NCBI GenBank assembly: GCA_018060545.1
Contig: JAGOVW010000001.1
Coordinates: forward strand, 61,203 to 125,202
From: Minisyncoccota bacterium
GTDB lineage: Bacteria; Patescibacteriota; Minisyncoccia; Phycocordibacterales; UBA2100
DNA length: 64,000 nucleotides
Direction of reading: 5' to 3'
Shown here: positions 47,324 to 59,764 of the stretch, in pieces
Layout: the number at the start of each line of letters is the position of its first letter
Position numbering within the stretch: the first letter of the stretch is position 1
Notes under the pieces: generated by a model
What the model saw: the letters and a program-made list of their open reading frames with translations, nothing else
Told to the model about the DNA's origin: nothing
The model's database searches: none
Position numbers and translations under genes: made by a program

Positions 47324-48274
47324 GTGGATTATATGGAGTGGCTTCGCAGACATAGCACGCTCTTCTACGCGCTCGGTGTTGGTTTGATTATTCTCACGGG
47401 AGCTGTCTTTATTTCTGATAAATTTGCTACGCAGGCAGATCCTTCTGCGAATGTAAGCTGGGGCACGAATGAAGACCGATTTCTTCCAGATGCGGGCATT
47501 ATCTCACCGCGCACCGGTGGTGGCGTTGCACCAGCCTTCGATGAGGAAAATTTCTTTTCGCATCTGGCCAACACGAGAGACAAGGGCGCATCATACGTCT
47601 CTCTCCAAGACCTCGGCGACCCACTTAAAGACAAGGCACCAACCGTTTCTGGGGACGGTAGCATGGCATTTGCTGACGAATCGCTCATTGCGCTACTTGG
47701 CTCCATAGAATCAGGTGGTTTGATTCGAGTCACCGAGGAAGGTAGCAAGGAACTTGGACTCGCTGATATCTACTCGCTGATTCCATCAAATAACTCAACA
47801 CCCACAACAACGAAAGGACGACGCAGTGGGTTACAGCTCGACCTCTTTGATTATGGTAACGCAACAGGGGTCCATATTTTGGGACAAATGGAAACGTGGG
47901 GAACGCGCCAAAATAGCATTTTGAAACGATTTATTGAGGATCCTACCGATGGTTTTAAAATACGTGAAGTTGAGGATCTTGCCGATTCATTTGTACAGTT
48001 GGGCAAGGACATAGAAGAAACAGAGCCGGTCCCAGAACCTATAAAGAGCGCTCACGCAAAAGTTGCTGCTGGATACAAAGCTATAGGGGAACACACGCGA
48101 GCAGTATCTCAGGCTCGATCAGAGGCAGAACTCATTAACGCAATGCTCGCATCGAACGCTGCATCAGACCAGTTTGTAAAAGACTACACATCGCTCGCAG
48201 ACATCTTCACCGCCTACAATGTGTCATTTAGTTCGACCGACTCCGGTCGTGTATTTGTTTTCAAGGCATTCTAG
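47324..48274 (+). CDS. Membrane-anchored hypothetical protein (first gene of the T4SS-like block)
   Basis: N-terminal TM (LFYALGVGLIILTGAVFI); no recognizable domains. Confidence 0.45.
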   Translation: MDYMEWLRRHSTLFYALGVGLIILTGAVFISDKFATQADPSANVSWGTNEDRFLPDAGIISPRTGGGVAPAFDEENFFSHLANTRDKGASYVSLQDLGDPLKDKAPTVSGDGSMAFADESLIALLGSIESGGLIRVTEEGSKELGLADIYSLIPSNNSTPTTTKGRRSGLQLDLFDYGNATGVHILGQMETWGTRQNSILKRFIEDPTDGFKIREVEDLADSFVQLGKDIEETEPVPEPIKSAHAKVAAGYKAIGEHTRAVSQARSEAELINAMLASNAASDQFVKDYTSLADIFTAYNVSFSSTDSGRVFVFKAF

Positions 48275-48331
48275 GGGGCTATACCCACGGTCTATAACAG
48301 GTATTAGGGTACGCCTAGGTATACTCTACGT

Positions 48332-49183
48332 ATGGTAGACACTCGTGGTATGTACACCCTGGCTGGCCTTTCTGTGGCTGGATTGCTGATTGCGGGAGGA
48401 ATCAGGTTAGGAATCCTGCATCAACCTTCAATCGTGTACCAAGTACCTAAAAACGCACTGCCGACACCAAGCCCCTTTCTTAAAGAAACCGACTCCGACG
48501 GAGACAGCCTTCCCGATTGGCAAGAAGAACTCGCAGGAACAGACCCTTTAAATAAAGACTCTGACGGTGACGGGACCAACGATGCACTTCCGGCAGAAGT
48601 AACAGAGGGACTTGAGGAAACAGCAACCGAGGCTATCACCGAGCGACTCATTAGTCGGTATGTCGCGCTCAAACAGCAGGATGCGTATAGCGAGGAAAAA
48701 GGCGTTGCATTGGCTGAAGATTTAACGAACAGCCTCAACATAGATATTCCTTTTGTGCCATACACCAGAGGGGAGCTCACCGTCACAGCGGCAACACCAT
48801 CAGAGAGAAAACAACACGAAGCTCAGGTGCGAGCCATGCTCGCACCCTTAAAAGCATTTGCGGAGCCCGACATAGCTATTTATGCTCGCTACGTACAGAA
48901 CAAAGACATTGCCGCGCTTGCAGAAGTGCGTGAGCATGGACTTGCATACATCAAAGCAGGGGAGGGCATGATGCACATCAACCCACCATCCGACATTGTC
49001 GACGACCACCTTGAAGCGGCGAATGCGTTGGTATACTTTGGCGCAACACTTCAAAAAATGGCAGAGCGTGCCGAAGATCCGATAGCCGCACTCTCGCTGT
49101 TGCGTACCTATAACCAGGCTGAGCAGTACCTAGGGTTTACGATAGGGGTCCTCGACCGCTACTATAAGGAGGCATCGCTATGA
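48332..49183 (+). CDS. Membrane-anchored hypothetical protein with thrombospondin-type-3-like Ca-binding repeats
   Basis: N-terminal TM; [32 protein letters not shown] (DxDxDG repeats). Confidence 0.45.
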
Positions 49184-58074: not shown

Positions 58075-58079
58075 CATAT

Positions 58080-59348
58080 ATGGGAGACGAAAAATCAAGA
58101 AAAATAATTGTTTCTGTGCTCATTATTCTGATTATCCTTATAATAGGGTCGTTTTTCGGGTGGTACTGGTGGCTAAAAAAACAGCAAAGGGCGGTGAACG
58201 TACTTACTGAGGGGAGAGGTCTCGCTAACGGCATACCCGCTTTTAGTGGAGGAACACTCGGAAGTACAAACTCAAATATAAGCTCCTCATTCAAAGAGCT
58301 GGGGACTACGACCGTTACAGTAAACGCACGCGAAAATACGCGAAGTACCTCCACGCCCGCTGCGTGGCGTGTAAGCACAACGCCCGCTGCGTCAATCAGT
58401 ATTTCCTACATCGGAGGTCGTCCGCGCGCTTTTGTCACAGAGCGAGTGTCTGGCAACGTGTTTAGTGTTGACCCACTGACAGGGGAAGCTGTGCGTGTAA
58501 CGAATACGCTTATACCCATGGTGTATGACGCACTATGGATCAATGCAACCGACGTCTTACTCCGTGGTATGAACGACCGTGGATTGGTAACCACCTTTCT
58601 GGGTCACCTCAGAAACGCCACCAGTTCTCCGACCGGGGAAATGGTGGGCGAGTATCTAGACGTGGGTATTACGGCGGTCGCCGCACACCCTGATGGCACA
58701 TCCTTTTTTAGCATTCACCCTATTGCCACGGGTTTTATTGGTGTTATACGTAACGCGAACAACCTTAATGAACGCCGCGTATGGGAATCAGTCACAGGAG
58801 GATGGCGAGCTCTCTGGACGGGAAATACCATCAAACTCATTCAACACGGTTCCCAGGGAGTCTTTGGAAGCATATACAGCATTGATCCAGTAAATCGGAC
58901 CTCACGACCACTCCTACAGGGTGTGGCAGGCCTTTCAGCTGCCGTACGTGCTGACGAACGCGCGATTATTTACAGCGAATCGTATATTGGATCCTTTTCT
59001 ACATTCTTAAAAACACCAGAAGGAACGCGAACATTACCTATTAAAACTCTCGGAGAGAAATGTGCTTGGTCTCCAAGCAACGAAAATATCGCCATCTGTG
59101 CCGTACCAGATGGACTAGGGGAAGAGGCACTTCCTGAATCTTGGTACAGTGGACGCGTTCATTTTAATGATACGCTCTGGTTGGTGCACGCAGACACAGG
59201 GGAGGTACGCGAGTTACTAAACCCCGGAACTTTCTTCGGGGTACCTGTTGATGTCACAAATCCCAACATTGACCCCAGTGGATTGTTTTTCACCTTTATA
59301 GATAGTAAAAACAGCACCCCGTGGTTACTCCGTATTTCAGAGCTATGA
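58080..59348 (+). CDS. Membrane-anchored extracytoplasmic hypothetical protein (possible β-propeller) in the T4SS-like cluster
   Basis: N-terminal TM (IIVSVLIILIILIIGSFFGWYWW); the rest is predicted periplasmic or extracellular. Confidence 0.45.
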   Translation: MGDEKSRKIIVSVLIILIILIIGSFFGWYWWLKKQQRAVNVLTEGRGLANGIPAFSGGTLGSTNSNISSSFKELGTTTVTVNARENTRSTSTPAAWRVSTTPAASISISYIGGRPRAFVTERVSGNVFSVDPLTGEAVRVTNTLIPMVYDALWINATDVLLRGMNDRGLVTTFLGHLRNATSSPTGEMVGEYLDVGITAVAAHPDGTSFFSIHPIATGFIGVIRNANNLNERRVWESVTGGWRALWTGNTIKLIQHGSQGVFGSIYSIDPVNRTSRPLLQGVAGLSAAVRADERAIIYSESYIGSFSTFLKTPEGTRTLPIKTLGEKCAWSPSNENIAICAVPDGLGEEALPESWYSGRVHFNDTLWLVHADTGEVRELLNPGTFFGVPVDVTNPNIDPSGLFFTFIDSKNSTPWLLRISEL

Positions 59349-59764
59349 AAGATAAAATAAACTATTACGTTATGTTTGCGGCCCAATTCGTTCCCATTGT
59401 GAAAGATTTGGGAGCGAATCCAGCACTCAATGAAGCCATGAAGAGTGCAGACCTTTCTTCTTTTTTAAATGCAGCTTTTAAAGTGACTATCATCGTCGGT
59501 GCCATGCTAGCTGTTGCTCGTGTTGGGTATGGTGGATTTTTGTACATGGGAAGCGACTCGTGGACAAACAAATCTCACGCCAAAGAAGTGCTTGTGGATG
59601 CATTGACAGGCCTCGTCATCCTCTTGGCTATAGTACTGATACTTCAGTATATAAACCCACAGATACTTAACCTCAACCTTACACCAGCCAAGGTTTCCAC
59701 ACCGTCGGCTGCAGGTACGGTAAGCCCAAGCTCTGCTGCACCAGCAGCAGACACATTCACGTAA
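59345..59764 (+). CDS. Candidate VirB2/TrbC-like T4SS pilin (two TM helices)
   Basis: 139 aa; two hydrophobic helices (AAFKVTIIVGAMLAVARVGYGGFLY; LTGLVILLAIVLILQYI) separated by a short polar loop. Overlaps the upstream gene by ATGA. Confidence 0.4.
   Translation: MKDKINYYVMFAAQFVPIVKDLGANPALNEAMKSADLSSFLNAAFKVTIIVGAMLAVARVGYGGFLYMGSDSWTNKSHAKEVLVDALTGLVILLAIVLILQYINPQILNLNLTPAKVSTPSAAGTVSPSSAAPAADTFT

Follow-up and report, generated by a model that had tools for sequence, protein, structure and literature searches.

Gene Content of the Cluster

The DNA analyzed here is a window of 64,000 nucleotides from a Minisyncoccota bacterium (assembly GCA_018060545.1, contig JAGOVW010000001.1; all coordinates below are those of the window), which carries at 47324-59764 a cluster of genes for a type IV secretion system (T4SS). 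The eleven open reading frames (ORFs) of this region all lie on the plus strand, are intact, and occur at the coordinates that a first-pass annotation, made from the sequence alone, had given them. They encode a membrane motor set of VirB6-like, PrgI/VirB3, TrsD-like and VirB4 proteins, a VirB2-like pilin, and six conserved proteins that do not belong to the canonical T4SS components. Together with its flanks the cluster has the order uvrD-ksgA-[316-283-667-VirB6-180-PrgI-TrsD-VirB4-349-422-pilin]-jag-yidC-dnaA, in which proteins lacking a standard name are designated by their length in amino acids (aa). This order is kept across 80 species-level loci, namely the best VirB4 matches obtained by scanning a genome collection, which constitute the related loci discussed below.

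To judge from sequence and gene order, the cluster is the T4SS of the Patescibacteria clade in the version found in class Paceibacteria, a system already known from the literature of 2023-2025, since the arrangement in the window matches exactly the description of Paceibacteria loci by Quinonero-Coronel et al. (2025; PMC12102498). Their survey of 3,035 Patescibacteria genomes showed that the VirB4 proteins of these organisms form a monophyletic clade nested in MPF-FATA and present in 2,407 assemblies, that genes for TrsD, PrgI/VirB3, VirB6 and a VirB2-like pilin lie near virB4, that relaxases are rare, and that in Paceibacteria virB4 is found near dnaA, dnaN, rnpA, ksgA and rpmH; a review of 2025 restates these points on the T4SS of Patescibacteria (PMC12857230).

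Within the cluster, neighboring genes overlap by ATGA at 49180 and at 59345, as first reported. Gaps of 2-9 nt precede 53370, 54486, 55149 and 58080, the first of them measuring 2 nt instead of the 3 nt originally counted, and wider gaps of 29-57 nt precede 48332, 51214, 53942 and 57025.

Motor Proteins

What identifies the cluster as a T4SS is its VirB4 ATPase of the CD1110 / MPF-FATA type (55149-56981, plus strand; 610 aa), which combines a family match with both Walker motifs. The protein scores 374.7 bits (E 9e-112) against the NCBIfam model NF045971 (VirB4-like conjugal transfer ATPase, CD1110 family), above the curated cut-off of 325 bits, and it also matches Pfam P-loop_TraG (E 5.5e-25); residues 264 and 471 mark the Walker A (GSGKS) and Walker B (DEAW) motifs, respectively. 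The same protein, with 100% identity, is found at NCBI in a metagenome-assembled genome of 'Candidatus Pacebacteria', and hundreds of clusters from Kaiserbacteria/Paceibacterota show about 90% identity, the closest relatives on plasmids being VirB4 proteins of Firmicutes and Actinobacteria (29-36% identity). The genome is accordingly that of a Patescibacterium of class Paceibacteria, Kaiserbacteria-like by these matches. By similarity, rather than by a tree, the ATPase thus appears to group with the monoderm CD1110/MPF-FATA proteins and their Patescibacteria homologues.

The initial assignment of a separate ORF to the N-domain of VirB4 proves correct, since the ATPase covers positions 184-733 of the CD1110 model and the ORF before it covers the N-terminus of VirB4 models. 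This TrsD-like protein of 217 aa (54486-55139, plus strand) aligns with the N-terminal 100-200 residues of several VirB4 models (E 3.5e-9 and 9.1e-6) and with TrsD (E 4.7e-6), all these NCBIfam matches being partial and far under the full-length cut-offs. PF26593 (TraC-like) is recorded for a product identical to it, and the ORF is present in 78 of the 80 related loci. It is the only ORF between virB4 and the gene for a small membrane protein of 178 aa (53942-54478, plus strand), whose PrgI/VirB3-like nature, also noted at first, is documented by a match to PF12666 of 31.3 bits over a gathering score of 27.

The extended polytopic membrane protein of 717 aa encoded further upstream (51214-53367, plus strand) is a probable VirB6-like protein, an assignment which falls short of proof and with which both its topology and the place of its gene are consistent. 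Its N-terminus is signal-like and is followed by six more hydrophobic segments and by a charged tail of 287 aa (67 K+R and 52 D+E residues) that is predicted to be cytoplasmic. Topology and tail agree with its first description as VirB6/TrbL-like; the family affiliation, for its part, emerges from a minority of its orthologs, 4 of 45 matching Pfam TrbL/VirB6 (best E 7.7e-5) and 6 of 45 matching NF046089, the NCBIfam model of the CD3337/EF1877 mobilome membrane protein (best E 1.1e-6). Its place upstream of PrgI-VirB4 is occupied in a clostridial plasmid by an unannotated ORF of 264 aa. A tblastn search of plasmids with the N-terminal 430 aa gave no match, and the comparison by hhalign of the family with the Clostridium perfringens plasmid membrane protein upstream of PrgI was not significant (probability 0.3%, with a single sequence as template). 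A Ferritin-like Pfam match in the tail (52867-53193, residues 552-660; 24.6 bits, at the gathering threshold) is found in one of the 45 orthologs and is probably spurious, reflecting composition.

The last gene of the cluster encodes a VirB2-like T4SS pilin of 139 aa with two hydrophobic helices (59345-59764, plus strand), the likely start being ATG 59345, which overlaps the preceding stop codon as ATGA. The original description of a pilin-like protein holds at the level of the family: 20 of 22 syntenic orthologs match PF18895 (best E 5.9e-10) and two match TrbC/VirB2. In the more distant of the genomes, the pilin gene is placed between the genes for the 349-aa and 422-aa proteins. Most orthologous pilins possess a hydrophobic signal peptide ending in AxA-Q and followed by the motif FVPL; instead, the pilin of the window (59321-59764) has a very short N-terminus, MKDKINYYVMFAAQ|FVP.

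Exported and Accessory Proteins

The first two genes of the cluster encode bitopic membrane proteins. That of 316 aa, counted from GTG 47324 (an ATG lies at 47333; 47324-48274, plus strand), has one N-terminal transmembrane (TM)-like segment, and that of 283 aa (48332-49183, plus strand) has an N-terminal TM-like segment, a TSP3-type calcium-binding repeat and then a helical ectodomain. Comparison of the two families by hhalign gives a probability of 96.9% (E 1.5e-10) over about 150 C-terminal residues, by which the proteins are evidently paralogs with a common C-terminal domain. The TSP3-like repeats recognized initially, of the form DxDxDG, were recovered in the 283-aa protein as TSP3_bac (E 0.0028, under the cut-off) and as the CglD repeat region (E 4.7e-4). 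Its gene is syntenic in 34 loci and that of the 316-aa protein is present in 12 of 80, the latter protein having no match in Pfam, NCBIfam or PDB sequences.

The secreted protein of 667 aa (49180-51183, plus strand) is modeled as a helical stalk with a beta-sandwich insert (pLDDT, the predicted local confidence score, 85.2): the model comprises an N-terminal helical domain, helices of about 40-75 residues, and the beta-sandwich, which is inserted at residues of about 400-547. Foldseek found nothing under E 1e-3 for this model in the PDB, and the profile of the family has no relative among PDB sequences. Of 29 invariant columns in the family, 16 fall within residues 35-80, including C39 and C78, and this segment is also the only part of the protein that AlphaFold cannot place (pLDDT < 50). 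Such low-confidence modeling of the most conserved segment suggests that residues 35-80 may fold only against a partner. The family is large, with 4,600 clusters at 50% identity for E <= 1e-3 and 3,010 for E <= 1e-10, and the source names among its listed matches are all 'hypothetical protein'.

The protein of 180 aa (53370-53912, plus strand) is acidic (net charge -17) and predicted to be cytoplasmic, having no TM segment; it shows a conserved C-terminal DPYRE motif and its gene occurs in 47 loci. For the 180 family, as for the 283/316 and 667 families, no meaningful match to a PDB sequence emerged from profile searches.

Downstream of virB4 lies the gene for a secreted Ig-like protein of 349 aa (57025-58074, plus strand), present in 78 of 80 loci. 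The protein has a hydrophobic N-terminus, and its family profile matches the Ig-like domains of phage T4 Hoc (E 2.5e-4) as well as immunoglobulin/antibody chains. The following protein of 422 aa (58080-59348, plus strand), whose gene is found in 67 loci, has a TM helix at its N-terminus, joined by a disordered linker (38-93) to a propeller: its AlphaFold2 model, derived from an alignment of 7 sequences (pLDDT 74.6; pTM, the predicted template-modeling score, 0.71), matches TolB in the PDB with E 3.9e-10 by Foldseek, along with many WD40/propeller structures at a probability of 1.00. The possible β-propeller of the first-pass annotation is thus substantiated by the model, according to which the protein is membrane-anchored. 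A TcpC/VirB8-like identity (NTF2 fold) was considered for this bitopic protein and ruled out, the model being that of a beta-propeller.

Conservation and Mobility of the Locus

Identity to the window proteins, expressed as medians over the loci that also carry dnaA and yidC, declines from VirB4 (78%) through TrsD (61%), PrgI (48%), the pilin (38%) and the 180-aa protein (35%) to the VirB6-like and exported proteins (27-33%). Medians over all 80 loci are within 0.4 points for VirB4, TrsD, PrgI and the pilin, and the 667-aa protein then has 28.4%. The corresponding values for housekeeping proteins are 55% for DnaA, 53% for UvrD, 49% for KsgA and 44% for YidC. VirB4 is therefore markedly more conserved than these proteins over the same genome pairs (78% vs. 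44-55%), a comparison in which the choice of loci by their VirB4 match slightly favors VirB4. The divergence of VirB4 correlates with that of DnaA, YidC and KsgA (rho 0.48-0.77), and the GC content of the cluster does not differ from that of its flanks. No integrase adjoins the cluster, the sole tyrosine recombinase of the window (26424-27404, minus strand, with Phage_integrase and SAM_1 domains) being about 20 kb away. Flanking repeats are short and likely due to chance, with no credible att-like repeat among them, and no tRNA gene is nearby. On these comparisons, the locus appears to be a vertically inherited part of the chromosomal core and not a mobile element.

In evolutionary terms, one may ask whether the locus is a degenerate integrated conjugative element which has lost its genes for DNA processing. 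The nearest relatives of its VirB4 outside the candidate phyla radiation reside on Gram-positive conjugative plasmids and on integrative and conjugative elements, and neither relaxase nor type IV coupling protein (T4CP) nor hydrolase was found at the locus, all of which would suit such a history. However, in 80 species the cluster occupies one and the same position between housekeeping genes and has an identical gene order, every ORF is intact, and the conservation of VirB4 beyond that of DnaA is the opposite of decay. With adjacent integrase, att-like repeats, nearby tRNA and GC anomaly all missing, this scenario is strongly disfavored and we consider it highly improbable.

The lack of genes for DNA processing can be specified further. 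No relaxase, T4CP or VirB11 is present among the ORFs of the 64-kb window scanned with Pfam, as the first-pass annotation had it, and queries from a C. perfringens plasmid (relaxase, MobC, VirD4-like T4CP, SLT hydrolase) had no tblastn match in the window or in any of the 80 loci (+/-10 kb). A working conjugative T4SS for DNA transfer would then require its coupling protein and relaxase to be encoded elsewhere in the genome. This is conceivable because the inspection of the genome spans 64 kb and because 2,918 Patescibacteria genomes contain 5,713 VirD4-like T4CP homologues, most of them encoded at a distance from virB4 (PMC12102498); moreover, a UvrD/PcrA-type helicase is encoded upstream of ksgA (44092-46047), and a uvrD match is seen in 40 of 80 loci. 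Yet relaxases are rare in the phylum, with 109 of them in 103 genomes (PMC12102498), the window and the 10 kb on either side in 80 relatives yielded neither relaxase nor T4CP, and the locus is a fixed part of the chromosomal core instead of a mobile unit. Moreover, the Saccharibacterium Southlakia epibionticum cannot grow as an epibiont without its homologous T4SS cluster, SEML1_0006-0019 (Wang et al. 2023; PMC10633639), whereas the distant T4CP homologue of the same organism is not essential (PMC12102498). We thus regard a conjugative function as quite unlikely.

Flanking Genes and Transcription

On the left, the cluster is flanked by uvrD (44092-46047) and ksgA (46078-46902), the product of which is KsgA; on the right, it is followed on the minus strand by jag (59799-60257), yidC (60263-60988) and rnpA (61020-61277), and then by dnaA (61611-62957), with DnaN beyond it at the edge of the window. 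Two tandem TTATACACAGG repeats, DnaA-box-like with one mismatch, lie upstream of dnaA at 61477-61498 and are a candidate oriC element by their sequence; because of these boxes, the initial placement of the cluster next to the origin region is a fair description.

The stretch of 421 bp after ksgA, taken at first as intergenic, contains a divergent gene on the minus strand (46921-47271) for a small secreted protein of 116 aa with a signal-peptide-like N-terminus and the motif TATACT-N6-ATG at its start. The protein has no match in a Pfam scan, and tblastn detects it in 19 related loci with 37-71% identity (mostly 42-71%), where the matches map just upstream of the 316/283 genes. By this synteny, it may be a conserved twelfth member associated with the T4SS cluster. 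Paralogs of the cluster families were not found elsewhere in the window.

TATACT-N6-ATG occurs seven times in the window against 0.28 expected, at 27893, 29514 (minus strand), 47269 (minus strand), 48320, 51202, 53957 and 57028. Of the seven, five coincide with starts of genes that belong to the cluster or adjoin it: 47271 (minus strand), 48332 (283-aa protein), 51214 (VirB6-like), 53969 (PrgI) and 57040 (349-aa protein). A -10 box located 6 nt ahead of the start codon is the arrangement expected of leaderless mRNAs. The motifs suggest leaderless transcripts and several promoters within the presumed operon; because they sit at internal gene starts, the single transcription unit first proposed is better divided, probably into [316], [283-667], [VirB6-180], [PrgI-TrsD-VirB4] and [349-422-pilin]. 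The position of the motifs also requires two starts to be moved, that of PrgI likely to ATG 53969 (the motif ending at 53971) and that of the 349-aa gene likely to ATG 57040 (the motif spanning 57028-57042). At the start of PrgI orthologs, a relaxed form of the motif is in frame in 27 of 74 loci.

Elsewhere in the window, the PilB-type ATPase noted at its left edge (3-1343, minus strand) is confirmed by T2SSE (E 5e-106) and MshEN domains in Pfam, and a Mg-chelatase-family (ChlI-type) ATPase is encoded at 33874-35448, 12 kb or more from the cluster. ORFs with no Pfam match at threshold are those of 876 aa (4149-6779, minus strand), 373 aa (20922-22043), 429 aa (32140-33429), 415 aa (40309-41556) and 235 aa (43388-44095). 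Those of 415 and 876 aa show weak, sub-threshold Pfam matches only, and that of 235 aa has zero tblastn matches in the 80 related loci.

Function of the System

The ultra-small Patescibacteria comprise perhaps a quarter of bacterial diversity and, to our knowledge, all those in culture live on other cells. The best explanation for the cluster, to which we assign a probability of roughly 80%, is that it encodes the Patescibacteria-clade T4SS serving an epibiotic lifestyle rather than conjugation, because no relaxase or coupling protein is at hand. The first-pass annotation had likewise favored an apparatus for secretion or host contact over a conjugative element, in accord with the published view (PMC10633639, PMC12102498), the function itself being one that we infer.

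The mechanism proposed here derives from what is established for T4SSs in general and from the Southlakia system. Docked on VirB3 and VirB6, VirB4 would pull the pilin out of the membrane and drive the building of a short pilus or conduit that crosses the envelope, which is that of a monoderm group devoid of an outer membrane (PMC12102498). The fast-evolving exported proteins would supply an envelope-spanning scaffold and parts for host contact or the tip, taking the place that VirB8, VirB1 and adhesins have in Gram-positive conjugation systems. The machine would then serve contact with the host, or the transfer of proteins or other molecules to or from the host cell. A constrained ATPase set against diverging surface parts fits, but does not prove, a conserved motor with host-adapted surface components.

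The direction of transfer could also be inward, the system working as an import machine for ComB/Ced-like DNA uptake or for scavenging host molecules and not for exporting substrates. In favor of this reading, Patescibacteria do not synthesize their own nucleotides, amino acids and lipids (PMC10633639), T4SS loci of class ABY1 co-localize with comF, recG and radA (PMC12102498), and a weak match connects VirB4 with archaeal CedB (E 9.3e-9, 34 bits vs. a cut-off of 700). This match, however, reflects generic VirB4 similarity, and no ComB- or Ced-specific component was recognized in the cluster. In Southlakia, furthermore, competence needs ComEC and type IV pili, and the deletion of comEC abolishes transformation with no effect on viability (PMC12857230), for which reason DNA uptake dependent on ComEC does not explain the essentiality of the T4SS. 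Import is therefore an unlikely alternative in our estimate.

Several points weigh against the proposal of an epibiotic T4SS. The VirB6-like protein of the window has itself no Pfam TrbL match and stays under curated thresholds, and the pilin of the window scores about 20.8-20.9 bits (E 3.8e-4) against PF18895, below the gathering score of 26.6. Searches of Pfam, NCBIfam and PDB sequences recognized neither a VirB8-like protein of NTF2 fold nor a VirB1-like cell-wall hydrolase in the cluster, both being components that are rarely detected in the Patescibacteria clade (PMC12102498). The roles of the six accessory proteins would follow from predicted localization, fold and synteny, and the role in host interaction is extrapolated from one Saccharibacterium. 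Finally, the searches for relaxase and T4CP cover 64 kb of the genome and the 80 loci, and a distant T4CP, of a kind common in Patescibacteria according to PMC12102498, may be encoded elsewhere. As to hydrolases, the candidate closest to the cluster is encoded 4.4 kb upstream of it (41864-42913, minus strand), an M23 peptidase that carries two LysM domains and has a match upstream of uvrD in 6 related loci; it is possible that this protein stands in for the absent VirB1-type hydrolase.

Within the framework of an epibiotic T4SS, a more speculative proposal can be advanced, which we hold only tentatively and consider doubtful as it stands. The six non-canonical proteins (the 667-aa, Ig-like, propeller, two bitopic and 180-aa proteins) might form an extracellular module specific to Paceibacteria, which would have turned a conjugation-derived motor into a new organelle for docking to, or exchange with, host cells. 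If this were true, the fast-evolving surface parts would set the host range.

The existence of the system is not new here, and the remaining interest lies in its conserved accessory proteins. The details added by this analysis are the 422-aa propeller, the Ig-like 349-aa protein, the paralogy of the 316-aa and 283-aa proteins, the stalk fold of the 667-aa protein, the 116-aa gene on the minus strand and the motifs of leaderless type. The window defines a strictly syntenic Paceibacteria version of 11-12 genes, in which an ATPase more conserved than DnaA is combined with rapidly diverging exported proteins. Few machines have been shown to be indispensable for the epibiotic lifestyle, and the T4SS is among them (in Southlakia). 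The exported proteins, one of which comes from the unannotated family of about 4,600 clusters, offer concrete candidates for the parts in contact with the host.

Comparison with Known Systems

With respect to the VirB/VirD4 system of Agrobacterium (MPF-T), the cluster contains functional equivalents of VirB2, VirB3, VirB4 and VirB6, whereas VirB1, VirB5, VirB7-VirB11 and VirD4 have no match among the window ORFs scanned. Closer similarity is found with the C. perfringens plasmid pSXP-169_2 (locus L081; CD1110 / MPF-FATA), which has a VirB4 of the same family (32% identity over residues 27-566), PrgI directly upstream of VirB4, and a membrane protein upstream of PrgI. The plasmid differs in carrying MobC, a relaxase, a VirD4-like T4CP, an SLT hydrolase and an unsplit VirB4 of 783 aa, none of which is present here; conversely, the cluster has a VirB2-like pilin, and Gram-positive conjugative T4SSs are devoid of such pilins (PMC12102498).

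The features shared with the Patescibacteria-clade T4SS are a VirB4 with MPF-FATA relationship, an ORF of its own for the TrsD-like protein, PrgI/VirB3, probably an extended VirB6, a pilin of PF18895, a locus free of relaxase and T4CP, and a position near dnaA, ksgA and rnpA. Among the members of this clade, the T4SS of Southlakia is similar to the conjugation systems of Gram-positive bacteria; its pilins are essential, and it is without coupling protein and relaxase (PMC10633639). Its core order, VirB6 - PrgI - TrsD-like - VirB4, is the same as that of the window. The Southlakia system differs in comprising two VirB6-like proteins, several pilins in an array and a protein that is NTF2-like (VirB8-like), whereas the cluster described here has one VirB6-like protein, one pilin and no recognizable NTF2-like protein. 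In contrast to Southlakia, it possesses the helical-stalk, Ig-like and beta-propeller proteins and the two bitopic paralogs, which are not described in PMC12102498, PMC10633639 or PMC12857230 and are conserved across the loci of Paceibacteria type.

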